A DNA stretch of 23,839 nt, taken from IMG/VR virus record IMGVR_UViG_2671180458_000011. One strand, written 5' to 3'. The notes under the pieces are model-generated. The model ran no database searches. It saw only the letters and a program-made list of their open reading frames with translations, and was not told the origin of the DNA. This DNA comes from a virus (lineage: Duplodnaviria > Heunggongvirae > Uroviricota > Caudoviricetes). Shown here piece by piece: positions 7,860-23,591 of this stretch. Made by a program: the position numbers and the translations under genes. Each line of letters opens with the position of its first letter. Position 1 is the first letter of the stretch.

Positions 7860-8289
7860 TATTGCTGTCGTCTGGGATCAGGGTTGCGGTTCCCTGCAAC
7901 TGAACGGCGCAGATCTTCTGACGGATAACAGCCTGCTGACTGCGGTCATTATTTCACTGTTTACGGACAGGCGGGCGCTGGATTCCGATGAAATCCCTGA
8001 CGGCACCCGTGACCGTCGGGGATGGTGGGGAGACAGTTTCCGGGAGCGCCCCGTTGGCTCCCGTCTCTGGCTGTTAAGCCGTGAAAAGACGCTGTCCTCC
8101 GTGGTCAGCCGTGCACAGGCCTATGCTGATGAAGCGCTGGCGTGGCTGCATAAAAGCGGTGCTGCCACATCCGTGGTATGTCATGCCATGCGTGTGGGGC
8201 ATGCTCGCCTTTCGCTTTCCGTGAAAATCACCCTGCCGGACGGAAGCAGACATCCGATGATTTTTTATGCTGATATGAAGGGGGAATGA
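7852..8289 (+). CDS. baseplate protein gp46-like
   Basis: 145-aa ORF from ATG 7852 (the ORF track's 7639 start is an upstream in-frame extension overlapping gp45); position between V-like and J-like genes. Confidence 0.7.
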   Translation: MADIAVVWDQGCGSLQLNGADLLTDNSLLTAVIISLFTDRRALDSDEIPDGTRDRRGWWGDSFRERPVGSRLWLLSREKTLSSVVSRAQAYADEALAWLHKSGAATSVVCHAMRVGHARLSLSVKITLPDGSRHPMIFYADMKGE

Positions 8290-9371
8290 TGCCTTATCAG
8301 CCCTTACCACTGGCGCAACTGATCACACAGACACAACAGGATATCAGCCAGCGCCTGCCCGGTTCGCAGCCGGGCGTGAATGAAACCACCCTGAATGCCA
8401 TTGCGTATGCACTCGCGGGTCTGTCAGCACAGGAGCATGAACATCTGGCCTGGATCTCCCGGCAGATAATTCCGACAGAAGCTGATGAAGCCGAACTCCT
8501 GAAACACTGCGCATTCTGGGGTGTCATCCGTAAACCGGCTTCCCGCGCTGACGGACCGGTACAACTGATGCTGACCACGGATGCAGGGATCACGGAAGGC
8601 GTACTCCTTCAGCGAAGCGATGGTGTTGTGTACCGCATCACCGGCTCTGCGACCGGAAAAGCCGGAACACTGAATGTTAATGTGGAGGCGGAAAGTGCGG
8701 GGCGCGCTGGAAATACCCCGACCGGAACCCGCCTGTCCTTTATCACGCCACAGGCGGGCATCAACCAGACAGCCACGGTCACCGGCACGGGACTCACCGG
8801 TGGTGCGGATGTGGAAACGGTGCCGGAGTTGCTGTCCAGGCTGGTATTCCGGGTACAGAACCCGCCATCAGGGGGAACACAGTATGATTTTGAACGCTGG
8901 GCACGGGAAGTACCGGGCGTGACGCGGGCATGGTGTAAGCCTGAATGGCCTGAGGCGGGTAGTGTTGGTGTGACTTTTGTTCAGGATAATAACCCTGACA
9001 TTTTCCCCGGAGAAGGTGATGTGAAGCGGGTGGCGGATTATATCCGCAGTCATGATGATCCGGCGACGGGCCAGCCCGTTGGTCAGCCACTTGGGCCGAC
9101 AATCAGCGTGTTTAAGCTGACCAATAAGCCGGTGGCGTTTGAGATCAGGATTGTACCCAAAACGCCGGAAAATCAGGCTGCCGTAAAACAGGCATTAACG
9201 GACCTGCTTTATAACGAATCGCGGCCGGGTGGACTTGTATTGCCTTCATCATTCTGGCGGGCTGTTGCAGGGGTGAAAGGACTGGAGGATTTTGAAGTTC
9301 GCAGCCCGCTGAAGTCCGTGATGGCCGGAGATACAGAGTTGCTGACCGTGGGGGAAATCACATGGCTGTAA
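8286..9371 (+). CDS. baseplate J-like protein (Mu gp47-like)
   Basis: 361-aa ORF overlapping both neighbours; size and position of baseplate J family. Confidence 0.8.
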   Translation: MMPYQPLPLAQLITQTQQDISQRLPGSQPGVNETTLNAIAYALAGLSAQEHEHLAWISRQIIPTEADEAELLKHCAFWGVIRKPASRADGPVQLMLTTDAGITEGVLLQRSDGVVYRITGSATGKAGTLNVNVEAESAGRAGNTPTGTRLSFITPQAGINQTATVTGTGLTGGADVETVPELLSRLVFRVQNPPSGGTQYDFERWAREVPGVTRAWCKPEWPEAGSVGVTFVQDNNPDIFPGEGDVKRVADYIRSHDDPATGQPVGQPLGPTISVFKLTNKPVAFEIRIVPKTPENQAAVKQALTDLLYNESRPGGLVLPSSFWRAVAGVKGLEDFEVRSPLKSVMAGDTELLTVGEITWL

Positions 9372-9922
9372 CCCTGACCCCGCATCAGCGTGCCCTGTTG
9401 CAGTTGCTGCCTGACGGGCTGGCATGGGATAAGCGGCCGTCATCCGTTCTTGCGGCTTTGTGCCTGGGCCTCAGTCATTCCACGGAGCGTGTTTCCTGGA
9501 CCGGTAACCAGATGCTGGCAGAACGTTTTCCTGATTCATCCCGTCTGCTGCTGGAAGACTGGGAGCGTTATCTGGGGTTACCGGAATGTGATATGACCGG
9601 CGCAACCATTCAGGAGCGTCAGCGTTATGCCGGGAATAAATACCGGATGAAACCCTCTCTTAACCGTGAATTTTATATCCGGTTTGCGGCAGAGTTTGGT
9701 TATGAAATAGATATTCAGCCATCACCGGATTCACAGTGGGTCAGTATTGTCACGATTAACAGTGAAACCGGCTACCGGAATATGAATGTGCTGGATGATA
9801 TTCTCACCCCGCTGCGTATTTATGAGGGTGGTGCGCTGGAATGTATTCTGAACCGTTATAAGCCTGCATGGCAGACGTTTATTTACGTGTATGCAAACAG
9901 CCATGAAGAGGAGACTATTTAA
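9362..9922 (+). CDS. tail protein gp48-like (DUF2313/YmfQ-like)
   Basis: 186-aa ORF directly upstream of the tail fiber gene; its stop overlaps the tail fiber ATG (TAATG at 9920-9924). Confidence 0.7.
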   Translation: MAVTLTPHQRALLQLLPDGLAWDKRPSSVLAALCLGLSHSTERVSWTGNQMLAERFPDSSRLLLEDWERYLGLPECDMTGATIQERQRYAGNKYRMKPSLNREFYIRFAAEFGYEIDIQPSPDSQWVSIVTINSETGYRNMNVLDDILTPLRIYEGGALECILNRYKPAWQTFIYVYANSHEEETI

Positions 9923-10833
9923 TGTTTCATGTTGATAATAATTCCGGCGTGGCGAATATGCCTGCGCTGGCACCGGCGCAGAGTAATACCACCACCTGGT
10001 TTACCGAAGGTGACGGACAAAAAGGTATCAGCTGGATTGGTCAGGACTGGCTGAATATTCTCCAGGCCGAACTGCTGAATATTCTGGCTGAAGCCAGTAT
10101 TCAGCCGGATAAGGCGCAGTTAAACCAGCTTACGCTGTCCATTAAAGCCATTATCGCTGCGAATGCCTTTTCCCGGAAAAACAACCTGAAAGAAATTGCT
10201 GATGCCGGTGCGGAAGCCCAGCGTCTTGCCCGTAGTTATCTTGGTCTTGGGGCGCTTGCCACAAAAAACAGTCTTGGTCCCGGTGACGTTAATGCTCTGG
10301 CGAAGGATCAGAACCTTGCCGACCTGGAGAATGCGGGAACCGCCCGTAATAATCTGGATGTTTACAGCAAAAGCGAAGGTGATAACCGTTACCTGCGCAG
10401 GGAGCAGAACGGCGCAGACATTCCGGATAAAGGCGCTTTTATCGATAACGTCGGTTTACGGGAAACGGTAAATAAGGCTGCTGATGCCCTGCCATCGGGT
10501 GGAACCGCCGTGGCAGCAAACAGACTCGCCACCCCAAGAAATATTAATGGCGTTCCTTTTGACGGAACGCAGGATATCAACATCACGTCAGGAATGACGC
10601 AGTCAACCGCAGATGGCCGGTATGTACAGAATGTTCAGCTTGGAGCACAGAGCTATCATTCACCCGGAGGCAATGAAATATCATGGAATTACAGCGCACC
10701 TTCCGGTTGTATGCTTTCCGGTATTAACGTGCAGGAAACCGGCTCCCGGTCTGCGGACAATATCGGTGGGGTCTATTATCGCCCGGTTCAGATTTATATT
10801 AATAATGCCTGGAGAACGGTAAGTTCAGTGTAA
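9922..10833 (+). CDS. tail fiber protein: constant part (9922 to about 10451) fused to the currently in-frame variable part Sv (about 10465-10833)
   Basis: 303-aa ORF; a gix-like crossover site lies inside it at 10439-10464; its C-terminal tail resembles that of the inverted cassette on the opposite strand. Confidence 0.8.
   Translation: MFHVDNNSGVANMPALAPAQSNTTTWFTEGDGQKGISWIGQDWLNILQAELLNILAEASIQPDKAQLNQLTLSIKAIIAANAFSRKNNLKEIADAGAEAQRLARSYLGLGALATKNSLGPGDVNALAKDQNLADLENAGTARNNLDVYSKSEGDNRYLRREQNGADIPDKGAFIDNVGLRETVNKAADALPSGGTAVAANRLATPRNINGVPFDGTQDINITSGMTQSTADGRYVQNVQLGAQSYHSPGGNEISWNYSAPSGCMLSGINVQETGSRSADNIGGVYYRPVQIYINNAWRTVSSV
10439..10464 (+). other. gix-like recombination site, left (inside tail fiber gene)
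   Basis: TTATCGATAACGTCGGTTTACGGGAA: 26-bp site with two imperfectly symmetric 12-bp halves around a 2-bp core, closely resembling the Mu gix / Hin hix architecture. Confidence 0.7.
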
Positions 10834-10843
10834 ACCACAGAAA

Positions 10844-10862
10844 AGGGTGCTGAATGCACCCT
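10844..10862. terminator. stem-loop between convergent tail fiber and tfa genes
   Basis: 7-bp stem AGGGTGC/GCACCCT with 5-nt loop, between tail fiber stop (10833) and tfa stop (10868); T-rich stretch follows on the + strand. Confidence 0.35.
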
Positions 10863-10867
10863 CTGAA

Positions 10868-11440
10868 TTATTCCGGTTTTTCCGGCCAGGGAATCGCCTG
10901 GTAATGCCCCTCACTGGCAATATCATTAAAGTGCATTTCTTTAAGCTGTCGGATATACGCCATCCAGCGCGTCAGCTGTAATTTATTTTCATCGCTAATC
11001 ATGTCCAGTTTTAATTCTGTTTTCCAGTCATCCACGGTTTCGTTGGCTTCCTGGAGCAGCGATGAGCGACGCTTTTCAGCAACCGTCTTCCAGTTTACCG
11101 GCACCTTTGATATCAGGCCATCAGAAAACTGCCAGTTACCGTCAATATTCACACCTTCCGGCAGTTCGTCCACTTCAACAACAGTAAAACCTGCCGGATA
11201 TAAAGCAGAGACATCTTCAGCAACAGAGCAGATAATACCCGTTACAGGCGAAATACAGAGTTTGTATTTCTTTGTGAAAAGCGGGATAGATTCATAAAAA
11301 TCCCTTCCGTCCTCACTCTGGAAATACTGAACATCCTCACCATAGGGTTTGTCTTTCGGGTAATATCGTTTGACATTAATCAGTTGCATAAACATCACCA
11401 TGTAAATCAATGATAAAAACAGGAATAATACTATCGCCAT
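10868..11440 (-). CDS. tail fiber assembly protein (Tfa/U'-like), paired with the inverted Sv' cassette
   Basis: C-terminus ends in the Tfa-type motif (IPWPEKPE). The first 17 codons are strongly hydrophobic, so the real start may be the internal ATG at 11389. Confidence 0.65.
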   Translation of the reverse strand: MAIVLFLFLSLIYMVMFMQLINVKRYYPKDKPYGEDVQYFQSEDGRDFYESIPLFTKKYKLCISPVTGIICSVAEDVSALYPAGFTVVEVDELPEGVNIDGNWQFSDGLISKVPVNWKTVAEKRRSSLLQEANETVDDWKTELKLDMISDENKLQLTRWMAYIRQLKEMHFNDIASEGHYQAIPWPEKPE

Positions 11441-11510
11441 ATACAGGCAATGCTTGTCTGAAATAACGCATATTTCAGATGCTGGCTGCTGTGTGCTATG
11501 CCCCCGTTAA

Positions 11511-11877
11511 TTAAATACTTGCAGCGGATACCCAATGCCCATTAATACAATATTGTATCTGTCTGTAATAAACACGGTCATCACCACCACGCATTTCCCA
11601 GTCTCCGTTAGTCTTAAAACCGGTAATCACATTTCCTGATGACAGGGAGTAATTATATTCCAGTCCGCCGCTTAATGCCTGCGCTCCCAGTCTTACCCCT
11701 GTAACATAACGCTGATTGGCCGTTGATTCCGGCATTCCTGACGTAATGTTTATATCCTGCGTGCCGTCAAAGGCGACACCATTGATTCTGCGGGCATTTG
11801 CCAGCCTGCTTGCTGCAACAGCCGTACCGTTTGATGGCAGGGCATTCGCGGCCCTGTTTACAGTATCCCGTAAACCG
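11511..11877 (-). CDS. alternative tail fiber C-terminal cassette (Sv'), promoterless in the current orientation
   Basis: Minus-strand frame open from the right gix-like site to the stop at 11511; C-terminus resembles that of the + strand fiber. Confidence 0.6.
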
Positions 11878-11890
11878 AGGTTTCAGGGAT
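11865..11890 (-). other. gix-like recombination site, right (inverted relative to left site)
   Basis: ATCCCGTAAACCGAGGTTTCAGGGAT; the 12-mer CCCGTAAACCGA is the exact reverse complement of TCGGTTTACGGG in the left site; sits just upstream of gin as in Mu. Confidence 0.7.
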
Positions 11891-11944: not shown

Positions 11945-12505
11945 ATGCTGATTGGCTATATACGCGTATCAACAAATGACCAGAACACAGGTTTACAAAG
12001 AAATGCGCTGGAATGTGCAGGATGTGAGCAGATTTTTGAAGACAAAATGAGTGGTAAAACGACACAGCGGCCGGGACTGAAGCGGGCACTGAAGAAACTA
12101 AAACCCGGTGACACGCTGATGGTCTGGAAACTGGACAGGCTGGGGCGCAGTATGCGCCACCTTGTTGCGCTGACAGATGAATTACAGCAACAGGGGATAA
12201 ATTTTCGTAGTCTTACTGACAACATTGATACGTCAACCCCCATGGGGCGCTTCTTTTTTCACATAATGGGTGCGCTGGCAGAAATGGAGCGTGAATTAAT
12301 TGTCGAACGGACACGGGCTGGTCTTGCAGCTGCCCGTGAAAGGGGACGAACCGGCGGCAGACCCCGCCGTCTCACGCAGGAACAATACGAGCAGGTCGGG
12401 CGTTTACTGGCCGGGGGTGTCAGTCGAAGACAGGTGGCACTTATTTTTGATATCGGTCTTTCAACCCTTTATCGTTATTATCCTGCGAGCGTTTCGGAAA
12501 AATAA
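11945..12505 (+). CDS. gin: serine DNA invertase (Gin/Pin/Hin family)
   Basis: 186-aa protein beginning MLIGYIRVSTNDQNTGLQRNALECAGCEQIFEDK, near-identical in pattern to Mu Gin including the catalytic-serine N-terminal domain and C-terminal HTH; AAGGAAGG Shine-Dalgarno upstream. Confidence 0.9.
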   Translation: MLIGYIRVSTNDQNTGLQRNALECAGCEQIFEDKMSGKTTQRPGLKRALKKLKPGDTLMVWKLDRLGRSMRHLVALTDELQQQGINFRSLTDNIDTSTPMGRFFFHIMGALAEMERELIVERTRAGLAAARERGRTGGRPRRLTQEQYEQVGRLLAGGVSRRQVALIFDIGLSTLYRYYPASVSEK

Positions 12506-12604: not shown

Positions 12605-14644
12605 ATGACGTCCAAATGGGTTCAACTATCATCAATGCCCGGAAACTTTACTGTTAAAGTTTCCGGTGGTACAGCGGCATTTCTTGAGGCTCCCTTTCCT
12701 CCGGCCGAAACAAAAGGAGGAATGACATTTGCTGACTGTCTCATCAGTTTTAATACACGGGATTGCCTGTGGGTAAGGCCAGTATCCGGTGATCCGAGTG
12801 TGGAAATTACCGGAGCGGGTATTGGTGCGGTCATTCCGTTAAGTGCTGATGTTGCCGGTACTGCTGAACCGTCAGACTGGGATAATGCTGAAACACATAC
12901 CCGTCCGTCAGGAAATGAAACTGCTTCCAGCTCCCCTTCCTGGTATTACGTGGTGGTTCTTGCTGGTCAGTCAAACGGTATGGCTTACGGTGAAGGTCTG
13001 CCACTGCCGGAGACATATGACCGCCCCGAACCGCGTATTATGCAGTTAGCCCGTCGCAGTACAGTCACGCCGGGAGGTAAAGCCTGTCAGTATAACGACA
13101 TCATTCTGGCCGACCACTGTCTGCATGATGTGCAGGATATGAGTGGAAAAAATCACCCGAAAGCGGATGTGGCTAAAGGGCAATATGGCACCGTGGGTCA
13201 GGGGCTTCACATTGCCAAAAAACTGCTGCCGTTTATTCCGGCAGATGCGGGGATTCTGCTGGTTCCCTGCTGCCGTGGTGGTTCTGCATTCACGGCGGGT
13301 GCTGACGGCACGTACAGTGACAGCACGGGTGCTTCAGAGGACTCAGCCCGCTGGGGTGTGGATAAGCCGCTGTATAAGGACTTAATCAGCCGGACAAAAG
13401 CGGCACTGGCGAAGAACCCGAAAAACCGCCTGCTTGCTGTGGTGTGGATGCAGGGCGAGTTTGATATTGATGCGAAGCCGACGGAGCATTCTGCGCTGTT
13501 TCTGGCGATGGTGGAAAAATTCCGCGCAGACCTGGCTGAACAGGCGGAACAGTGTACCGGTGGCAGTGCTGCTGGCGTTCCGTGGATTTGTGGTGATACC
13601 ACGTATTTCTGGAAACAGAAAAACGAACAGGCATACCAGGCAATCTATGACGGCTACAAAAATAAAACAGATAAAAACATTCATTTCGTCCCATTAATGA
13701 CAGATGAAAATGGCGCGAATGTACCCACCAACAATCCGGCAGAAGACCCGGATATTGAATCCATTGGTTATTACGGCTCAACGTGGCGTAACAGTGCCGC
13801 CACCTGGACATCTGCGGACCGGGCCAGCCATTTCAGTTCATGGGCACGTCGTGGGATTATTTCCGACCGTCTGGCCACGGCAGTTCTGACTCATGCGGGG
13901 CGAACCACAGTAAAAGCCGATGTTCCATCTTCTGAAACTGAAGCACCAGTGCCGTCACCTTCAGAAACTGAAGCAGTAACCACAACACTGCTGTCTTACC
14001 GTGTCAGTGAGTCAGAAGGAAATCTGAAAGCCCAGGGCTGGGAGCCGGCTGGCGGTAAAGCTGAAATTATCAGTGATGCAGGAGGCACAGGTGGTAAGGC
14101 AATGAAACTGACCAAGGAAACAGGTAAATCATCCTGGTATCTGGATCATGATGCCGGTACTGGTGCTGAACTGCTGAAAAATGGTGGTTTAATCAGTTGT
14201 CGTTTTAAAGTACCGGGCGACCTGGTGGCAAACCAGTATGTCATGGCGCTTTACTGGCCGGTTTCCTCTCTGCCGCAGGGTGTCACCCTGACAGGGGATG
14301 CAGGGAATAATCTGCTGGCATCGTTCTACATCCAGACAGACGCAAAAGACCTGAATGTGATGTACCACAATGCAAAAGTGGCAACAAATAACCAGAAACT
14401 GGGAACCTTTGGTGCATTTGATAATGAATGGCATACGCTGGCCTTCCGTTTTGCAGGAAATAACAGCCTTCAGGTTATTCCGGTTATTGATGGTCAGGAT
14501 GGTGCCGCGTTTACCCTGACGCAGTCACCAGTAGGAACTTTCCCGGTGGACAAACTCCGCGTAACGGATATCACAAAAAATGCAACTTACCCGGTGCTGA
14601 TTGACAGCATTGTGGTGGAAGTGAAAAAAGCGGTAACAGAATAA
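12605..14644 (+). CDS. SGNH/SASA-type esterase with C-terminal lectin-like domain (NanS-p-like sialate O-acetylesterase candidate)
   Basis: 679 aa; GQSNG block at about residue 120, WMQGEFD block and a D-x-x-x-H block consistent with SASA/DUF303 esterases; Pro/Ser/Thr/Glu-rich linker then about 230-aa beta-rich domain. Family call from motif recognition only. Confidence 0.5.
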   Translation: MTSKWVQLSSMPGNFTVKVSGGTAAFLEAPFPPAETKGGMTFADCLISFNTRDCLWVRPVSGDPSVEITGAGIGAVIPLSADVAGTAEPSDWDNAETHTRPSGNETASSSPSWYYVVVLAGQSNGMAYGEGLPLPETYDRPEPRIMQLARRSTVTPGGKACQYNDIILADHCLHDVQDMSGKNHPKADVAKGQYGTVGQGLHIAKKLLPFIPADAGILLVPCCRGGSAFTAGADGTYSDSTGASEDSARWGVDKPLYKDLISRTKAALAKNPKNRLLAVVWMQGEFDIDAKPTEHSALFLAMVEKFRADLAEQAEQCTGGSAAGVPWICGDTTYFWKQKNEQAYQAIYDGYKNKTDKNIHFVPLMTDENGANVPTNNPAEDPDIESIGYYGSTWRNSAATWTSADRASHFSSWARRGIISDRLATAVLTHAGRTTVKADVPSSETEAPVPSPSETEAVTTTLLSYRVSESEGNLKAQGWEPAGGKAEIISDAGGTGGKAMKLTKETGKSSWYLDHDAGTGAELLKNGGLISCRFKVPGDLVANQYVMALYWPVSSLPQGVTLTGDAGNNLLASFYIQTDAKDLNVMYHNAKVATNNQKLGTFGAFDNEWHTLAFRFAGNNSLQVIPVIDGQDGAAFTLTQSPVGTFPVDKLRVTDITKNATYPVLIDSIVVEVKKAVTE

Positions 14645-15643: not shown

Positions 15644-15821
15644 GATCCTACCTTCACTGTATAAAAAGTCAATAAAATGATCATTTTATGATCGTTTTCA
15701 CCACCTAAGTCTTCGTTTTCTTTAAGTAAATAATCACCGCCCTGAATCATTGTTGATGACTTTTCAATCTATTTGTTGTATCAATTAAACAAATCGAATC
15801 GATCGTTTTTGTCGATCGATT
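15644..15821 (+). promoter_or_regulatory. GATC-dense mom-operon control region (candidate Dam-methylation-sensitive promoter region)
   Basis: Five GATC sites in about 175 bp (15644, 15679, 15690, 15801, 15814), including a 9-bp inverted repeat AATCGATCG n7 CGATCGATT at 15797-15821 just upstream of com. Confidence 0.45.
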
Positions 15822-15864
15822 GCATGAGAAAGGCATCAACAACAAAGCAGGAGGTTATGCGGCC

Positions 15865-16065: not shown

Positions 16066-16756
16066 ACTTATTCGCTATAACGACAATATCGTTGGTTATG
16101 GCTCCCGTGAGTTGCGGGTTGAGACAATAAGTTGCTGGCTGGCCAGACTGGTCATCGTCAATAAACATTACAGCCACCGTTTCGTAAATAACTCCTACCT
16201 TCATCTGGGCATATTTTCAGAACGGGAGCTGGTTGGCGTAATGCAATGGGGCTATGCCCTTAATCCAAACAGTGGTGCACGCGTCGTAACGGGCACGCGG
16301 AACCGTGAATATATGGAGCTTAACCGGTTATGGCTGCATGACTGTATGCCGAGAAACTCCGAATCAAGGGCAATCAGTTACGCGCTCAAGCTAATCAGGC
16401 AGCTTTATCCGCAGGTACAGTGGGTTCAGTCGTTTGCAGATGAGCGTTGTGGCTGTCTTGGTGTCGTGTATCAGGCAAGCAATTTTGATTATGTAGGCAG
16501 CCACGAATCAACATTCTATGAACTTGATGGCGAGTGGTATCACGAGATTTGCAGGAATGCCATTAAACGAGGCGGACAGCGAGGTGAACATCTGAGGGCT
16601 AATATCGACAGAGCCAGTGTTCATAAATTCCGTCAGTTTCGTTACATCCGGTTTCTGAACAAGAGGGCCAGAAAACGCCTCAACACAAAGCTATTCAAAG
16701 TCCAGCCTTACCCAAAACCACAAACAGTTAAAACTGGTTTAAAAGAGAGTGAGTGA
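16019..16756 (+). CDS. mom: Mom-like DNA modification protein
   Basis: 245-aa ORF (GTG start) beginning inside the 3' end of com, the characteristic com-mom overlap; last gene before the prophage right end as in Mu. Called from context, not from remembered sequence. Confidence 0.6.
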
Positions 16757-18044
16757 ACGCTTAAAAACTCATTCTAAAACCCAAAAGAAAAGCGCCGATT
16801 TAGTATCAAATAAGTTGCGTATCGGCGTTTTTCAGCGGTATCAAATGAAATGCAAATCGGTATCAAAAAAATCGCCGCGCTATAATAAGCAGCTCAGAGC
16901 TGCCAATAAAGTCACTAACGTGCTGGATACAGAACTCACATCAGCCCGTGCCGCGGAACGTAAGGCCCAGCAAACTGCACAACAAGGTATGAAGGAAGAA
17001 GAGCGAGAGTTGTGCGCGTCACATTTTCCAGTGGTGACTTTGGAGCAATTGCCTGACATTCGCGATTTAGAACGTCAACATGAGCGGGGAATTCAGCATG
17101 AAATTGAAAGAGTTAAAGCTGAACTACATCGACTGAACATTGAGTTGACCAAACGTATGTCTGAAGCCAAACGTGTGGATACCGGGGCGCTCGTTGAGGC
17201 AGGGGCTGATTTGGACGATATTACTGTTTATTTACAGCGTTTGCAGGAACTGACCGAAGAAGCCCTGCCGGAAAAGCTCAATCGCTTCCTTGATTATCTT
17301 AACCGTTCATCCGATGACGGCGTAACACAACTGCTTAGCCATATTGAGCATGAGGTGCTGGTGATTGAGGAGCGCCTCAATGAACTCAATGAAACTATGT
17401 TCAGGGTTGATTTTCAGCCGTATCGCTACCTGCGTCTGGATACCAAAAAAGTTGTCCATGAAAGCCTGCGCACGCTTGAAAAAGCACAGCGTCAGCTAAA
17501 TGCCGCCCGATTTGTTGATGATAATGGCGAGAGCTATTATAAGGCTTTGCAGATACTGGTGGCGCAATTGCGGGATGCTTGTGAACGAAACCGTACCCTG
17601 GGAGCAAAAGCGCTACTGGATCCCCGTTTTCGACTGGAGTTCGCCGTATCGGTGATGGATCGTCAGAGCGGAAATGTGATTGAGTCTCGTACCGGCTCAC
17701 AGGGTGGTAGCGGTGGAGAAAAAGAGATTATCGCTTCTTACGTGTTAACAGCTTCACTTAGCTACGCACTTTGTCCTGCGGGGAGCCGTTATCCGCTTTT
17801 CGGTACCATTATCCTTGATGAAGCCTTCTCCCGCAGTTCTCATGCGGTGGCGGGTAGGATCATTGCCGCGCTTAGAGAATTTGGCTTACATGCAGTATTT
17901 ATCACCCCCAATAAGGAAATGCGCCTGCTGCGTGACCATACTCGTTCGGCGATTGTTGTCCACCGGCGCGGTCAGAATTCCAATATGGCTTCTCTGAGCT
18001 GGGAAGAGCTTGAACGACACTACCAGCGACGGGGGAACGCGTAG
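16749..18044 (+). pseudogene. jetC 3' fragment: C-terminal half of a Wadjet SMC-like ATPase, truncated by the prophage
   Basis: Contains signature-like GSGGEKE, Walker B IILDEAF and an H-loop His but no Walker A; the first 48 codons or so (16749-16896) are a Lys-rich read-through of phage-end sequence; coiled-coil-like sequence begins about 16897. Confidence 0.6.
16800..16896 (+). repeat. prophage right-end repeat array (candidate transposase-binding sites) ending in CA
   Basis: Three direct copies of GTATCAAA at 16803, 16838 and 16860 plus ATCGGCG/ATCGCCG motifs; GCGTTTTTC at 16825-16833 resembles part of the Mu R-end; terminal CA at 16895-16896. Confidence 0.4.
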
Positions 18045-18045
18045 G

Positions 18046-19194
18046 ATGTATTCCCCAGATGAATTGCGTGAAAAGCTTGCCCGGCAGTGGGATAGCGCAA
18101 AACTTCGGGCTGAACGCTTACTGTCCCCCGGTAACTGGCCGCTCTGCCTGCCTATTGGTAAACCTTCCACGAAAATATTTGCAGAGCAGACTCAGCGCGT
18201 TTTGCAGCACGTACAGCGATGGAGGCAAGTTGCGGTTGGGCACGTGGAATGGGAAGCGGTGAGTTATCGGGCAAGTGATACACCAGTATTAATGCCGTTG
18301 CGCTGGATTCTGAATAGCCCTTCTGAGTGGATCAACGCCGCTGCGGATCCGGTTGTGAGCCGGGAATTTCGCTTGCTGGAAGGAATTATTGAACAAGTTA
18401 ATCCCATTTTTCACCCGCTGTTGGTAAAGCATCGCTCTCTCTGGCGGCACAAAGATCCGCAGGGCGTCATCAGCGCCGCCACGCTGGCCTGCCGATTAGA
18501 GCCGGGCTGCGCAAAAGGGCTGCCGTTAAGATTGCTTTCCGGGCAAGGAGTGGATACCAAATTTATCGAGAATAATATTTCGTTATTAACCCGACTGTTA
18601 GACGTGCGGTTTTCAGGAGAAGCCAGCGAGCAGGGATTAACAACTTTTCTTGATGCTTTTGATGAGTCCAGTCACTGGGTTTTAGTTGTACCATTATCAC
18701 CCGGCTTACTTCCTTTTAAAAAATGCCGGGTAACAACGGCGGAACTGGCAGAAACAACATTACCTGCGTCGCAAGTACTGGTGGTTGAAAATGAGCAGTG
18801 TCTGCATCATCTTCCAGCATTATCTGACACTATCGCGATTTTAGGCTGTGGCCTGGACGTGCAATGGCTATCCAGTTCTGTTCTGGATGAAAAACGCGTT
18901 GCTTATTGGGGGGACATGGATAGCTGGGGATTACTGATGCTGGCGAGAGCCAGGCGCTGTCGTCCGACGCTTGATGCCCTGCTCATGAACCGTGAGTTGT
19001 TTGAGCAGTATGCCAGTCATAGCGCCGTTCCAGAACCGGTCATAGCGAAGGAAGCTGTACCTGATGGCTTGCTTAACGAAGAGGCCGATTTTTATCGCTA
19101 CTTAACCCGTTTACCGTGTGGTCGTCTGGAGCAGGAGTTTTTGCCAGTGGGGATTGCGGAAGAGGTGCTTCTCAGGTGGGGAAAAGAGAGTTAA
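18046..19194 (+). CDS. JetD-like Toprim-domain protein (Wadjet subunit D)
   Basis: ATG at 18046 two nt after the jetC stop (ORF track starts at TTG 18010); about 382 aa with VVENE and YWGDMD motifs typical of the DUF2220 Toprim-like domain. Confidence 0.65.
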   Translation: MYSPDELREKLARQWDSAKLRAERLLSPGNWPLCLPIGKPSTKIFAEQTQRVLQHVQRWRQVAVGHVEWEAVSYRASDTPVLMPLRWILNSPSEWINAAADPVVSREFRLLEGIIEQVNPIFHPLLVKHRSLWRHKDPQGVISAATLACRLEPGCAKGLPLRLLSGQGVDTKFIENNISLLTRLLDVRFSGEASEQGLTTFLDAFDESSHWVLVVPLSPGLLPFKKCRVTTAELAETTLPASQVLVVENEQCLHHLPALSDTIAILGCGLDVQWLSSSVLDEKRVAYWGDMDSWGLLMLARARRCRPTLDALLMNRELFEQYASHSAVPEPVIAKEAVPDGLLNEEADFYRYLTRLPCGRLEQEFLPVGIAEEVLLRWGKES

Positions 19195-19747: not shown

Positions 19748-20590
19748 TTATATCGCTAACGCTCCGGGATAGTGCTTAGCAATAATATCATTAAGCCTGT
19801 CAACCAGCTCTGGTTTCCTGAACGTGATGTGCGCGGAGCCCTTCTTAAAGTATCTGATGCTGAACATCTCATCTTCATAGTCCTCTTTACCCTGAACAGA
19901 CTGGACGTGATCATCCAGATGAATAGTGATGTTTTCCCGGTTGTCGGGGATCGGTTTGCCGCTGAACAGGTGTAGCATTCTTTCCAGATCAGCAAGTCGA
20001 TCTGCCTGTTGCCCGGTGATAAGATGAAAGCCCCACCGGTCCCACCTCATCAGGTTGTTGACGATAATTTTACTGCCAAATTTGCAGGGGCAATTGGTTT
20101 TGTAATTCCAGCTCAACCCTCTGAAGACGTTGATCACCCCCCGCTCAAACACCTCATCCTTATTCTGGTGCAGTTGTTCAAATGTGCTCAGAATGTTCGC
20201 TTCACTGATTTCCGGAAAATTATCGTATTCCAGTGACCGGTACCATGTATCACGGGCCTGTGCATCCATTAAGGAAAGCATCCCGGAACGTTGCATCAGG
20301 TCACGCCAGATTTCGCGATCGAGATTGCGTGTGATGGCTTTCATTGCGGTTTCAGGTTTCTCCATCAGCCAGCAACCGCAGTGAAAATTCTGTTTCATGG
20401 CCCAGTCCAGTGCGGTTTTACCGCCAATGCTTTCTGTCATTGCTGAGATTTCAGCCAGTTGCCGGATAAGTGTGTCGATTTGCAGCAGTGTACTCTTTCG
20501 TACAGCCAGAATGTGGAGGATACTGGTTGAGCAGATAACGTCCGTATGCCAGTTGACAACTTCCGGACGGGAGACTGTGATATCAGACAT
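19748..20590 (-). CDS. conserved hypothetical protein (280 aa; possibly DUF4942 family)
   Basis: Long ORF at the extreme island end next to the att repeat; family name is a tentative recollection. Confidence 0.5.
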   Translation of the reverse strand: MSDITVSRPEVVNWHTDVICSTSILHILAVRKSTLLQIDTLIRQLAEISAMTESIGGKTALDWAMKQNFHCGCWLMEKPETAMKAITRNLDREIWRDLMQRSGMLSLMDAQARDTWYRSLEYDNFPEISEANILSTFEQLHQNKDEVFERGVINVFRGLSWNYKTNCPCKFGSKIIVNNLMRWDRWGFHLITGQQADRLADLERMLHLFSGKPIPDNRENITIHLDDHVQSVQGKEDYEDEMFSIRYFKKGSAHITFRKPELVDRLNDIIAKHYPGALAI

Positions 20591-20674
20591 AATCGATATT
20601 CCTTTTTGCAGATAAATGAAAACGCCAGCCCTGTTCAGGCTGGCGTCAGTGGAATGAAGTCTGGTGAGTGAGAG

Positions 20675-20872
20675 TCACCGGTTCTGGTGCAGAAGCTGCA
20701 ACTGGCGCAGTGTACGGATATCTTCCCTGGCCTGTTCAATGCAGGGCAGCAGTGCTGCCGAATCCGTTTTATCCTCATCGTTGTCAAAGATAATTCCCGA
20801 TTCGCAGTCGATATTGTCCTGCAGCCACGCAATCAGAATATCCAGCGCTGTTTCCGTGGTTAATGATTTCAT
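20675..20872 (-). CDS. small conserved protein (65 aa; YeeW-like, possibly DUF957)
   Basis: ATG at 20872, 11 nt after the stop of the upstream gene; the ORF track's longer version (to 20917) overlaps that gene. Confidence 0.45.
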   Translation of the reverse strand: MKSLTTETALDILIAWLQDNIDCESGIIFDNDEDKTDSAALLPCIEQAREDIRTLRQLQLLHQNR

Positions 20873-20883
20873 GTTGTTTCTGG

Positions 20884-21372
20884 TTACCAGTTGAAAGTGG
20901 GTAAACCCGGCAGGCATTCAGCGCTGGCATCCAGATGAATGAGACTGACGCCATAACGTCGGGTAAGTGTGACAACCAGACGGCGGAACGTTTTTGACAG
21001 CCCCAGGCGTTTAAGCCGCAGAACCGGGTATGACCACGCATCGGTACGTAACAGATATCCGCTACCTGTGAAATGAATCCATTCTGATTCGCCGGTGTCA
21101 TTCGTCTGATGTGACAGCGAGTACAGCCAGGCGTTGTCCTTTGCAGTGATATGCGCGGTACTGCAGCGTATGCCGGTCAGGGCAGCAAATGGTGGCGTGC
21201 AGTCTGTTGAGACCCGGTCAGATTCATCAACAACACGAAGGGAGTGGCCATTGTCGCAGACCACGTTAATCAGTTCAGCGAGATTAACACCATCGACGTC
21301 AACGACAATTCGTCCCATGTTCAGCGTCTGCACGTTAACGCTGTCTGCTTCCAGCGTCAGAGTCAGTTTCAT
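20884..21372 (-). CDS. conserved hypothetical protein (162 aa; possibly DUF5983), translationally coupled to cbtA
   Basis: Start overlaps the cbtA stop (ATGA-type overlap at 21369-21372). Confidence 0.5.
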
Positions 21373-21746
21373 TGTTTCGCCTCCGGATGCTTCCCCTGGG
21401 TAATGTTATTTACCGTTCTGTAATTGTCGCGGGTCATCAGGCCGGTCGCCCTGCGAGCCCGGAGGATATCGATGCTGTTTATTAACTGAGAACGGGTACA
21501 GGCATTGAATTCCGGCTGGTCGGTACGCACCAGTGCGTATTTTTCAACAAGAAAGTTCACTGCATCGCACAGTGAAATGCCAGCTTCAATATGCTGCTCA
21601 ATCACACGTTCATCGGCAAACGGTGTGTCATTCAGTGTGAGGCCATAATGCTGGTCCAGCAGTCGGATGAGCAGTGTCTGCCAGATGGTGACGGGAGACG
21701 GGCAGCGAGATACCTCCCGTACATGTGTGTCGGATAATGTTTTCAT
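21369..21746 (-). CDS. cbtA: CbtA/YeeV-family toxin (type IV TA, cytoskeleton-targeting)
   Basis: [14 protein letters not shown]...[48 protein letters not shown] matches the CbtA/YeeV/YkfI/YpjF family; start taken at the internal ATG 21746 (ORF track 21848 extends into the antitoxin gene). Confidence 0.85.
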
Positions 21747-21792
21747 CTTAAGTTCTCTGTAACTGGTAGTGCTAAAGGTGAGAGCTTCGGGG

Positions 21793-22167
21793 TTATGAGG
21801 TGGTTGCGGGTGCCTGTGCCGGATAAACAGCCAGATAAACGTAACCACAGGAGCCGAGGGTGTCGGCTTCGCAGGTCAGCCCTTTTGCATACAGCGTGAC
21901 GGTATGCTGATTTCGGGGATTCAGTTCACCGCTGGTGAGCATGAGTTCCAGTTGTTTCATCAGCAGCGGAAAGGCCTGGTCCAGATGGTATGCATCTGCG
22001 TCGCTGAAGCGGCCGCTGATACCGGCGCGGTCGGCAAGGTAATGCAACCGGTTACCCTCCTGCACCAGACGGGCGCCAAAACAGGGTTTCACTGTGCAGG
22101 GAAGCCCCCACCAGGGGCGGTCGTGATTGTCGTCGGGATGAGTTATCCCGGAGAGTTTGTCTGACAC
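21793..22167 (-). CDS. cbeA: CbeA/YeeU-family antitoxin (type IV TA)
   Basis: 124 aa with [16 protein letters not shown]...[19 protein letters not shown], the YeeU/YfjZ/YafW family pattern; directly upstream of the toxin. Confidence 0.85.
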
Positions 22168-22329
22168 GATAAAATCCTCTCTGAAAAGTGGTTAAGAATG
22201 GTTTAACGATGACAGGTCAGCCGGGGCACTGACCGGTTTCGGTGAAGATGTATGCATTGATGAGAATGGCCTCATCCACAGCGGCGTCTGAGGTCATCTG
22301 GTCGTACTCGTTTCCCGGGTGACGGAACA

Positions 22330-22551
22330 TCAGTTCAGGGTGACGCTCATCAGCCGGACATACGGGCCAAAACTGTCCTTATGGCGTTCAGCAAACACGG
22401 CCAGCACACCGGGAATATCCTGCACTTCACGACCGGTATACGCTTCAGTGCTGCCGTGCCAGCGGTATTTGCCGGTACAGAAAGGAAAAAGACGGGATGC
22501 CGGATGTTGTTGGTGAATACGCATGGCTTCACCACGGGTGATGATTTTCAT
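22330..22551 (-). CDS. YeeT/YpjJ-like protein (DUF987)
   Basis: 73 aa, MKIITRGEAMRIHQQHPASRLFPFCTGKYRWHG pattern of the YeeT family; conserved position between RadC-like and antitoxin genes. Confidence 0.8.
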   Translation of the reverse strand: MKIITRGEAMRIHQQHPASRLFPFCTGKYRWHGSTEAYTGREVQDIPGVLAVFAERHKDSFGPYVRLMSVTLN

Positions 22552-22613
22552 AGTGTGATACCTCTGAAGACAGAAGATAAAAGTGAAAACAAGCGTGATG
22601 TGGTTGTGACGGG

Positions 22614-23105
22614 TTAAAGCAGACCATGTTCGGCAAAGGAGAAAACCTGGTTGCCACCGACTATCAGATGGTCCGGCACCCGGATATCCACCAGGCCCAG
22701 TGCCTGTACCAGACGTTCCGTGATAAGGCGGTCTGCCTTGCTGGGTGTGACTTCACCGGACGGGTGATTGTGCGCCAGCACCACGGCAGCGGCATTGTGG
22801 TACAGGGCGCGTTTAATCACTTCCCGGGGATGGACTTCCGTGCGGTTGATGGTGCCGGTGAAGAGGGTTTCACCGGCAATCAACTGATTCTGGTTATTCA
22901 GATACAGCACCCGGAATTCTTCACGCTCCAGTCCCGCCATGTTCAGAATCAGCCATTCCCGTGCCGCACGGGTGGAGGTGAAGGCCACGCCGGGTTCATG
23001 AAGATGGCGGTCCAGGGTTTTCAGGGCCCGCAGAATGAGACTGCGCTCACCGGGCGTCATCTCTCCGGGCAGAAAGGAAAGTTGTTGCATTGTGCTTCTC
23101 TCCAT
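22614..23105 (-). CDS. RadC-like JAB-domain protein (YeeS/YfjY/YkfG family)
   Basis: 163 aa with the HNHPSG JAMM-type motif; likely start at the internal ATG (MQQLSFLPGE). Confidence 0.85.
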   Translation of the reverse strand: MERSTMQQLSFLPGEMTPGERSLILRALKTLDRHLHEPGVAFTSTRAAREWLILNMAGLEREEFRVLYLNNQNQLIAGETLFTGTINRTEVHPREVIKRALYHNAAAVVLAHNHPSGEVTPSKADRLITERLVQALGLVDIRVPDHLIVGGNQVFSFAEHGLL

Positions 23106-23591
23106 TCAGTCGATGATGCGCATAATGGCGCTGCATTCCGGATGCTGCAGGGCGTAATCCCGCAACCGGTAATAATGGACCGTCATGGCATAACACTCCG
23201 TACGACAGGCATGATGACTGTACGTCATCAGACAGGCGGCAATGCCGGCGGCTTCCGGGCTCATTTCAGCGCGGTTACCGTTCATGGCATTGAACAGTAC
23301 CCAGTTTTCGCCATCATCGTCATCCGGTTCGGGGGCCATAAATGCGCCACCGTTGTTCAGTGTGTACAGATTCCAGATACCACCGCAGTAGTCTTCGCAA
23401 AGACGGTCCATCCAGCCGAAGATACGGGGCTCCAGGGTCACCCACTGTGGAATGAGGCCAAAATGCTGCGGCCAGAAGCTGATGCGCTGTTCATCAGGGA
23501 CTATGGTGGCAACCAGCTGAGACTGGTCATTCCCTGATGCAGCGGTTACGGAAACAGAAGATGTGGTGGAATTATGTGAAATGGTTTTCAT
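23106..23591 (-). CDS. antirestriction protein (YfjX/YafX/KlcA-ArdB-like)
   Basis: 161 aa; sequence pattern of the CP4-type antirestriction family; immediately upstream of the RadC-like gene as in CP4 islands. Confidence 0.75.
   Translation of the reverse strand: MKTISHNSTTSSVSVTAASGNDQSQLVATIVPDEQRISFWPQHFGLIPQWVTLEPRIFGWMDRLCEDYCGGIWNLYTLNNGGAFMAPEPDDDDGENWVLFNAMNGNRAEMSPEAAGIAACLMTYSHHACRTECYAMTVHYYRLRDYALQHPECSAIMRIID

Follow-up and report, generated by a model that had tools for sequence, protein, structure and literature searches.

How can a tail-fibre switch that carries two alternative fibre tips but only one chaperone gene provide a working fibre in both of its orientations? The question is raised by a Mu-like Escherichia coli prophage of the Sp18 type, whose host-range switch lies in a 23,839-nucleotide stretch of viral DNA (IMG/VR record IMGVR_UViG_2671180458_000011; Caudoviricetes), the whole of which is referred to here as the window. 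Fibre tips and their tail-fibre assembly (Tfa) chaperones are usually seen as inseparable pairs, a view that affects host-range engineering, the retargeting of tailocins and the annotation of fibre loci. Comparison of related loci indicates that the single-chaperone layout is a stable and recurrent design and not damage, and favours a shared chaperone with expression signals of its own, a possibility that was not among the readings offered by an initial annotation of this DNA. On balance it is probable that one generalist Tfa is expressed on its own in either orientation. If the single tfa does serve both tips, the Sp18 family would represent a minimal natural cassette system, in which tips of ~125 aa are combined with one generalist chaperone of 173 aa.

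A Gin-invertible segment found in both orientations

The switch is made up of the following features, given by their position in the window and their strand.

9922-10833, + strand: expressed tail-fibre gene, 303 aa, an open reading frame that follows the Mu gp47 and gp48 homologues
9922-10449, + strand: constant part Sc, 176 aa; residues 1-176 are homologous to Mu S 1-191
10439-10464, + strand: left crossover site, gix-like, TTATCGATAACGTCGGTTTACGGGAA; core TC at 10451-10452
10447-10625, + strand: left arm of the extended imperfect inverted repeat, encoding the conserved cassette start
10450-10833, + strand: variable tip Sv, allele class T2, with the motif 'ADNIGGVYYRP'
10451-11878, no strand: invertible segment, 1,428 bp core to core, as defined by in-silico inversion
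10842-10864, no strand: G+C-rich hairpin between the convergent stop codons, 9 pairs, terminator-like on both strands
10868-11389, - strand: the only tfa (tail-fibre assembly chaperone), 173 aa, allele F1; match to Pfam Caudo_TAP (PF02413) and to Mu U
11390-11510, - strand: spacer of 121 nt between the Sv' stop and the tfa start, the putative site of tfa's own expression signals
11511-11879, - strand: silent tip Sv', 122 aa, allele T1, Mu-S-tip-like; open frame up to the right core, without a start codon or promoter of its own
11704-11882, - strand: right arm of the inverted repeat, which pairs with the left arm
11865-11890, + strand: right crossover site, gix-like, ATCCCGTAAACCGAGGTTTCAGGGAT; core GA at 11877-11878
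11945-12505, + strand: gin, serine DNA invertase, 186 aa; Pfam Resolvase 1.4e-51, HTH_7 1.7e-14

The initial annotation had described a Gin-invertible segment bounded by two 26-bp sites, inverted relative to each other and resembling the gix sites of Mu, with extended imperfect inverted repeats inside them and gin directly to the right, and all of these elements were borne out. When compared with the actual Mu sequence, the left site is identical to the left boundary site of the Mu G segment at 22 of 26 positions and the right site to the right boundary site at 19 of 26, and the central TC/GA dinucleotide of both is that of the Mu sites. The sites are also placed at homologous fibre codons, which read ...FIQNLGLQETVN... 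in Mu and ...FIDNVGLRETVN... in the window. Both are unique in the window: the 17-mer AACSTCGGTTTACGGGA that they have in common is found in exactly two copies, on opposite strands (0.01 expected from shuffles), and with a half-site matrix they score 30-31 whilst the next best score in the window is only 6.6, which means that the window holds no third crossover site. A third or fourth gix site that would let tfa flip alone was ruled out by the same matrix, the best score inside the segment being 2.4. The arms of the inverted repeat are 179 nt long and 74% complementary; they reach this far because both cassettes open with a homologous stretch of ~58 residues, and it is this common conserved start that makes them longer than the repeats of Mu. 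On the strength of its protein match to the Mu Gin structures 3UJ3 and 4M6F (E = 2.3e-91 for 3UJ3, ~2e-91 for both), Gin can be regarded as an orthologue and a close homologue of its Mu counterpart; the DNA of the two genes is 66% identical and is well conserved in the 5' part, the region in which invertase genes of this class carry a Fis-dependent recombinational enhancer.

The content of the segment, namely the 3' part of the expressed fibre on the + strand and one tfa and a promoterless alternative tip on the - strand, was likewise confirmed by open reading frames and Pfam. A Pfam search of the fibre and of Sv' returned no family, and their homology was instead established using PDB sequences: fibre residues 1-198 match Mu S (5YVQ_A, E = 2e-43) and residues 228-302 match the C-terminal tip of Mu S, with ~240 central Mu S residues absent from the window fibre. 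In each cassette, homology to the Mu S tip, which Mu Tfa binds in 5YVQ, covers the last ~75 residues, and the tip domain of Sv' is 61% identical to that tip. The two cassettes are 55% identical overall as proteins and near-identical over their first ~50 residues; the tips Sv and Sv' are only 122-127 aa long. Gin recombines the inverted gix-like sites at their TC/GA cores, flipping the 1,428-bp segment, and this joins Sc in frame to either Sv (the window state) or Sv'. Indeed, when 10451-11878 was inverted in silico, an uninterrupted fibre of 298 aa was obtained, since at either site the core falls on codon positions 2-3; the continuity of frame from the constant part into Sv' that had been proposed as a check is thus present.

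The switch is a genuine and active member of the Gin/gix class, and a single fixed orientation, which would have contradicted the proposed inversion, is not what natural genomes display. Amongst 209 complete E. coli genomes, which are not phylogenetically independent (many are clonal O157:H7), 183 carry the window orientation and 26 the inverted one, the latter being counted where a match to the predicted inverted sequence extended over 80% or more of that sequence. No genome can have been counted in both states, given that one in the opposite orientation never reaches 55% coverage of the query at a single place. The best inverted match, NZ_AP042676, is 99.6% identical with 100% coverage in one piece, and near-identical prophages (H9 and H31, both 99.6%) were found in opposite states. 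In the inverted genomes the Prokaryotic Genome Annotation Pipeline (PGAP) lists a 298-aa fibre gene that is intact, tfa and, on the opposite strand, a 'phage tail protein' marked as partial. IMG/VR contigs also show both states, with ~3/4 of the complete loci in the window orientation, and 9 of the 33 IMG/VR contigs of the family have their ends close to the left core, from 23 nt ahead of it to 134 nt beyond it, which fits mixed populations, where short-read assemblies break. Sequence and natural genomes in both states together demonstrate directly that inversion joins Sc to either tip.

The closest well-known system is the G segment of Mu (also SfMu and D108), with an orthologous Gin and 26-bp sites that have the same TC/GA core and lie at homologous fibre codons. 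Sc, the tips and tfa of the window are homologous to Mu S 1-191, the C-terminal tip of Mu S and Mu U, respectively, and in both phages gin lies directly to the right of the segment with com/mom further on. The window segment can be seen as a minimal version of the G segment, at 1.43 kb as opposed to ~3 kb: Mu S is longer by the ~240 central residues noted above than the 303-aa window fibre, Mu carries U and U' where the window has one tfa, and the Mu spacer between tip and tfa is 2 nt as opposed to 121 nt. The exchange of fibre C-termini at 26-bp sites is more widespread, being carried out by Cin on the C segment of P1, by Pin on the P segment of e14, by Min of p15B and in carotovoricin Er. 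There are two tfa-type genes in P1 and e14 and none is known in the 790-bp segment of carotovoricin Er, a comparison of value only as a lead. The inversion of the carotovoricin Er fibre by an invertase is cited in PMC13195805.

One chaperone gene in the Sp18 family and in P2-like phages

The product of tfa matches Caudo_TAP with E = 2.4e-18 (67 bits against a cut-off of 22.1) and Mu U (5YVQ_B) with E = 1e-15. Its start had been placed at 11440 and is more likely to be 11389, the start that PGAP gives in near-identical genomes. As had been observed initially, it is the only tfa, it sits beside the silent cassette, and none is co-oriented with the expressed fibre: in place of a position directly downstream of the fibre gene that it serves, it is convergent with the expressed fibre gene and 121 nt away from Sv'. 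The stop codons of Sv (10833) and tfa (10868) are separated by 34 bp, which are filled by the hairpin and hence leave no room for a second or degraded tfa. An equivalent hairpin occurs in the relative L066, which lacks gin.

This layout is a trait of the whole family. Tips and tfa were extracted from 35 related loci, drawn from E. coli genomes and from IMG/VR. In all complete family loci exactly one tfa is found, and the order is Sc, tip, tfa, tip, gin, esterase; this is true of five tfa alleles (F1-F5), of more than 10 tip alleles and of lineages in which Sc is only ~70% identical. A relative in Citrobacter braakii (L008) has the same one-tfa layout with a tfa of a different family. The more distant relative L044 has the canonical two convergent tfa, and its tips belong to different structural families. 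A tfa of its own after each tip, as in the Mu prototype, is therefore found neither in the window nor in any family locus; since the two-tfa layout is a feature of that prototype and not of the recombination system, the window locus is best filed as a variant of the G segment. The suggestion that one tfa was lost, taken as a defect of the window genome, is not supported, in that the layout is family-wide and recurs in Citrobacter and in unrelated P2-like switches. Mu, SfMu and L044, with their two convergent tfa, would be the model for a window locus that had recently lost its second tfa and was a decaying Mu-type G segment, but this is barely credible: two tfa are found in no family member, the single-tfa layout extends to the lineages with ~70% Sc identity and to all five tfa alleles, and the conserved hairpin fills the 34 bp where the second gene would lie. 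With one tfa in every family locus, a recent loss in the window genome is excluded, and any loss of tfa would have been ancient and maintained since. Whilst the switch type is textbook and has been recognized in Sp18 since 2009, no description of the single-chaperone layout was found, and a literature search for a single-tfa G segment or for Sp18 expression data returned only the 2009 remark that the region is 'atypical' (PMC2669165).

Similar switches occur outside the Mu-like phages. A survey was made of 31 other loci that have an invertase 72-77% identical to the window Gin and enough flanking DNA. At 18 two-chaperone loci the gap between the tip stop and the chaperone ATG is -4 to +14 nt, the sole exception being the minus-strand junction of L141, for which it is listed as 167 nt; in Mu the gap is 2 nt. 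All single-chaperone loci have a long gap of 52-121 nt. They include two groups of P2-like loci, one (L090, L092, L093, L135 and L145) with a 177-aa chaperone and a 95-nt gap, and the other (L122 and L133) with a 218-aa Tfa and a 72-nt gap. The order is the same as in the Sp18 family, that is, fibre, one chaperone, one or two silent tips and then the invertase, and both states are seen; L090 and L092 have three tips and one chaperone, and the chaperone is always downstream of one particular tip, with a spacer of 72-95 nt. They differ from the window in their P2-like baseplate and sheath neighbours, and their chaperone and tip families are unrelated in sequence to those of the Sp18 family.

Ogr-dependent late promoters of P2 have their activator box at -55. 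The spacers of both P2-like groups contain a perfect TGT-N12-ACA, for example in the palindrome TGTGTGATTACTCACACA. This box, at -84 or -88 relative to the ATG, precedes by ~55 nt the start site that a -10-like hexamer predicts. Late promoters of P2 that depend on Ogr have TGT-N12-ACA as their consensus (PMC3931495). In these loci the box also recurs at the expected places of PF, directly behind the invertase gene, and of PV, and from its presence in the spacer we infer that the lone chaperone of the P2-like switches has a late promoter of its own within the invertible segment. No equivalent of this recognizable box was found in the Mu-like family. Single-chaperone invertible modules might nevertheless represent a recurrent architecture, in which a lone chaperone, uncoupled from the fibre operon and with its own late promoter in the segment, serves every tip in either orientation; we put this forward tentatively, as a generalization that falls a little short of probable. 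The promoter under such a rule would be an Ogr box in the P2-like phages and, in the Sp18 type, perhaps an element near the palindrome at 11457-11479. If the single tfa does serve both tips, a rule based on spacer and promoter could predict chaperone sharing from sequence, and tip genes annotated as 'hypothetical' or 'partial' beside recombinases, of which several hundred E. coli genomes have examples, could be interpreted properly.

Chaperone use and chaperone expression

Whether the expressed tip needs a Tfa can be judged from its relatives. Its class is recognized by the motif VQ[ED]TG..SADNI[GA]GVYY[RK]P and is found outside the family in the Rac-SA53 fibre (70% identical), in SfMu gp52 (60%) and in a P2-like gpH (59%), each of which is followed by a tfa 1-3 nt downstream. 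The Rac-SA53 Tfa is also the closest outside relative of the window Tfa (51% identical overall, 67% in the N-terminal domain), such that the Rac-SA53 pair joins a tip 70% identical to Sv with a chaperone 67% identical to the window Tfa in that domain. In Citrobacter L008 the 'ADNIGG' class even occupies the position that is co-oriented with tfa. The expressed tip is accordingly a candidate for an ordinary client, and probably is a normal one.

A second point is whether one Tfa could serve both tips. No covariation of tfa alleles with either tip was detected, the alleles combining freely within the family, and the N-terminal domain of Tfa is 69-93% identical among alleles, at tip identities of 28-47% between classes. 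PMC9608196 summarizes work by North et al. (2019) that assigns fibre binding in Mu to this domain. Between Mu U and SfMu gp51 the identity is 86% in one domain and 96% in the other, and the former serves a Mu-S-type tip whilst the near-identical latter serves an 'ADNIGG'-type tip. Taken together, the free mixing of alleles, the conserved N-terminal domain and the case of Mu U and SfMu gp51 make it plausible that one generalist Tfa serves both tips, and the single Tfa would then be the chaperone for all tips of the family. The same cross-compatibility could be turned to another end, in that the expressed tip might need a Tfa that is supplied in trans by the tfa genes of other prophages in the same cell. 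Homologues of tfa are abundant in E. coli prophages, enterohaemorrhagic E. coli (EHEC) strains carry many, and the near-identical Tfa proteins that serve different tip classes make cross-complementation conceivable. Supply in trans is nonetheless quite improbable: the family is carried by a wide range of unrelated E. coli, commensals of humans and mice among them, reliance on a co-induced foreign prophage would be an unstable strategy, and the long conserved spacer of the resident tfa would be left unexplained.

It is this spacer that points to a tfa with its own means of expression. It contains a perfect palindrome, TCTGAAATA-TGCGT-TATTTCAGA (11457-11479, - strand), that is unique in the window and is kept in lineages with a diverged tfa and in the gin-less lineage. 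As the palindrome is without a following U-tract it is no obvious terminator, and it may be a protein-binding site. Between lineages in which the body of tfa is only 50-70% identical, identity is 88-97% across the spacer and the opening ~60 nt of the gene. Spacers in the Sp18 family are of three types (~52, ~80 and 121 nt), and that of the Citrobacter relative is ~70 nt. With a spacer that has a palindrome, a ribosome-binding site of its own and a hairpin in common with the fibre gene, tfa would form a separate expression unit within the segment, and we infer a promoter for it in the Sp18-type family; as a separate unit, it is proposed, tfa would be made in both orientations. In the window state the fibre gene and tfa would be transcribed towards each other, and after inversion tfa would in addition lie downstream of Sc-Sv'.

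The initial annotation had also raised the possibility that the window orientation is the less infective one. This is disfavoured by the predominance of the window state, as counted above, and by its fixation in a gin-less sub-lineage (L017-L019, L024, L027, L034 and L042, together with L066, NZ_CP145714.1 245215-287142). Here gin and most of Sv' have been deleted, with a few C-terminal tip codons left, and the locus is locked as tip(+)/tfa(-), i.e. with the fibre gene convergent with tfa. The members have one common deletion junction and yet three tip classes and two tfa alleles, from which it follows that tips were exchanged after the deletion. The lineage is present in ~7-13 complete E. coli genomes from humans and mice, and in one of its prophages, inserted in bcsA, the annotation marks none of the late genes, head genes through mom, as pseudogenes. 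Mu inverts its segment slowly, and a new lysogen has the orientation of the virion that gave rise to it; by analogy, a state with a dead fibre should not exceed one half of lysogens. The tfa-convergent state, being both the majority state and the one frozen in the gin-less lineage, is very probably functional. It might be argued that the window orientation is poorly infective or 'off', the fibre misfolding without its chaperone and good particles coming from the inverted state only, since the expressed fibre lacks a co-oriented tfa and the relatives of its tip normally have one. This is a very doubtful reading of a state that is found in 183 of 209 complete genomes and ~3/4 of complete IMG/VR loci, where founding by virions of the other state should have held it at or below about half, and in which a lineage with intact-looking late genes has been frozen and has since exchanged its tips. 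Sp18 DNA is, in addition, packaged efficiently (PMC2669165).

Several observations weigh against a generalist Tfa that is expressed on its own in either orientation. A consensus scan for a sigma-70 promoter upstream of tfa gave no more than 9/12 matches, as often as expected by chance, and this was so for the window and the gin-less relative alike. The Mu promoter Pmom has TTAT-N6-ATAA 24 nt upstream of its -10 hexamer, and a Mu C-type promoter in the spacer was rejected, there being only TAT-N6-ATA at a distance that leaves no leader; the gap between Mu gp41 and gp42, considered as the promoter PP, was dropped as conserved coding sequence. A search for dyads upstream of P, com, I, the sheath gene and tfa yielded no common motif, and a YTGTAT-N9-13-(-10) arrangement seen upstream of I, com and tfa, and not of lys, was identified post hoc and is a lead only. 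Each spacer type of the Sp18 family is linked to the co-oriented tip, and the conservation of the spacer could reflect recombination breakpoints and not function. The genome counts include the clonal O157:H7 strains mentioned above, and the gin-less prophage that was inspected has an IS5-like insertion in its early region. Within the family, finally, the 'ADNIGG' class is always tfa-convergent and the other classes are always co-oriented, and these fixed positions could mean that only co-oriented tips use Tfa.

The last of these points also speaks for a rival, the suggestion in the initial annotation that the expressed tip needs no chaperone. Tfa would then be made only in the inverted state (Sc-Sv'-tfa), the T2 'ADNIGG' tip would fold and work without it, and the switch would toggle between a bare tip and one that carries or needs Tfa. 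The constant tfa-convergent position of the class within the family, the lack of a convincing promoter upstream of tfa, and the commonness and locking of the tfa-convergent state all fit this account. According to PMC9608196, the Tfa of Mu remains attached to the fibre and takes part in host binding, and its presence or absence could therefore matter. In a bolder version of the recurrent architecture suggested above, the chaperone is expressed in one state only and the switch toggles a virion-bound Tfa 'cap' that aids host binding. Chaperone independence of the tip is nevertheless unlikely: everywhere else examined the same class is followed by a tfa (1-3 nt downstream in Rac-SA53, SfMu and the P2-like phage), it is tfa-co-oriented in Citrobacter L008, and the long conserved spacer would go unexplained where the P2-like analogues have a late-promoter box.

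The prophage and its surroundings

The best matches of the window are several Shiga-toxin-producing E. coli chromosomes, which are 99.8% identical over 2.65 kb around the switch. The window belongs to the same prophage family as Sp18, a Mu-like prophage of E. coli O157:H7 Sakai, but is not a copy of Sp18, in that these best matches are to other Shiga-toxin-producing genomes and the right flank is unlike the sorbose-operon site reported for the insertion of Sp18. The invertible region of Sp18 was remarked on in 2009, when its host-specificity function was scored as '(+), atypical' (PMC2669165); the published remark makes no mention of the single tfa or its spacer. Sp18-type elements are frequent in Shiga-toxin-producing E. 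coli, and their insertion sites differ among relatives (PMC7430833), as illustrated here by the one found in bcsA. Decayed copies also occur: in L004 (NZ_CP024056.1) the constant fibre part is disrupted and the esterase gene is truncated beside dusA, and in L025 the expressed tip is cut to 37 codons and gin is apparently frameshifted.

The gene order of the window is that of a Mu-type late region: sheath, tube, tape measure, N, P, gp45-48, fibre, gin and com/mom, with the Mu-type early region lying beyond the window. Pfam matches in this region include Phage_sheath, Baseplate_J, Phage_Mu_Gp48 and Mom, in the same order as in the annotated relative L066. To the left of the fibre gene the late operon includes the following.

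245-1744: tail sheath
8286-9371: Baseplate_J/gp47
9362-9922: homologue of Mu gp48

To the right of the switch are gin, an esterase gene and then com/mom at ~15.9-16.8 kb. The esterase gene (12605-14644, + strand), which is absent from this position in Mu, encodes a 679-aa protein with a SASA (sialate O-acetylesterase) domain and DUF6645, and is conserved throughout the prophage family, where copies are 60-99% identical; some 300 bp separate it from the tfa start in the gin-less lineage. It resembles the cargo genes of EHEC prophages and is presumably comparable to their NanS-p esterases. Upstream of com, at 15780-15850, a cluster of GATC sequences lies within a perfect palindrome with 8-bp arms, ATCGATCG-N7-CGATCGAT, which we take to be reminiscent of the Dam-methylation sites (Dam/OxyR control) upstream of Mu mom, although the spacing from the GATC cluster to com differs from that in Mu.

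Directly to the right of mom (~16.75-19.2 kb, + strand) are the C-terminal part of an SbcC/Rad50-like, JetC-type gene (16749-18044) and then JetD (18010-19194), an arrangement which suggests that the Mu-like prophage may have transposed into a Wadjet defence operon, splitting jetC. At the far right, 19748-23591 encodes DUF4942, DUF5983 and the CbtA toxin, genes that are typical of a CP4-44-like island and unrelated to the prophage.

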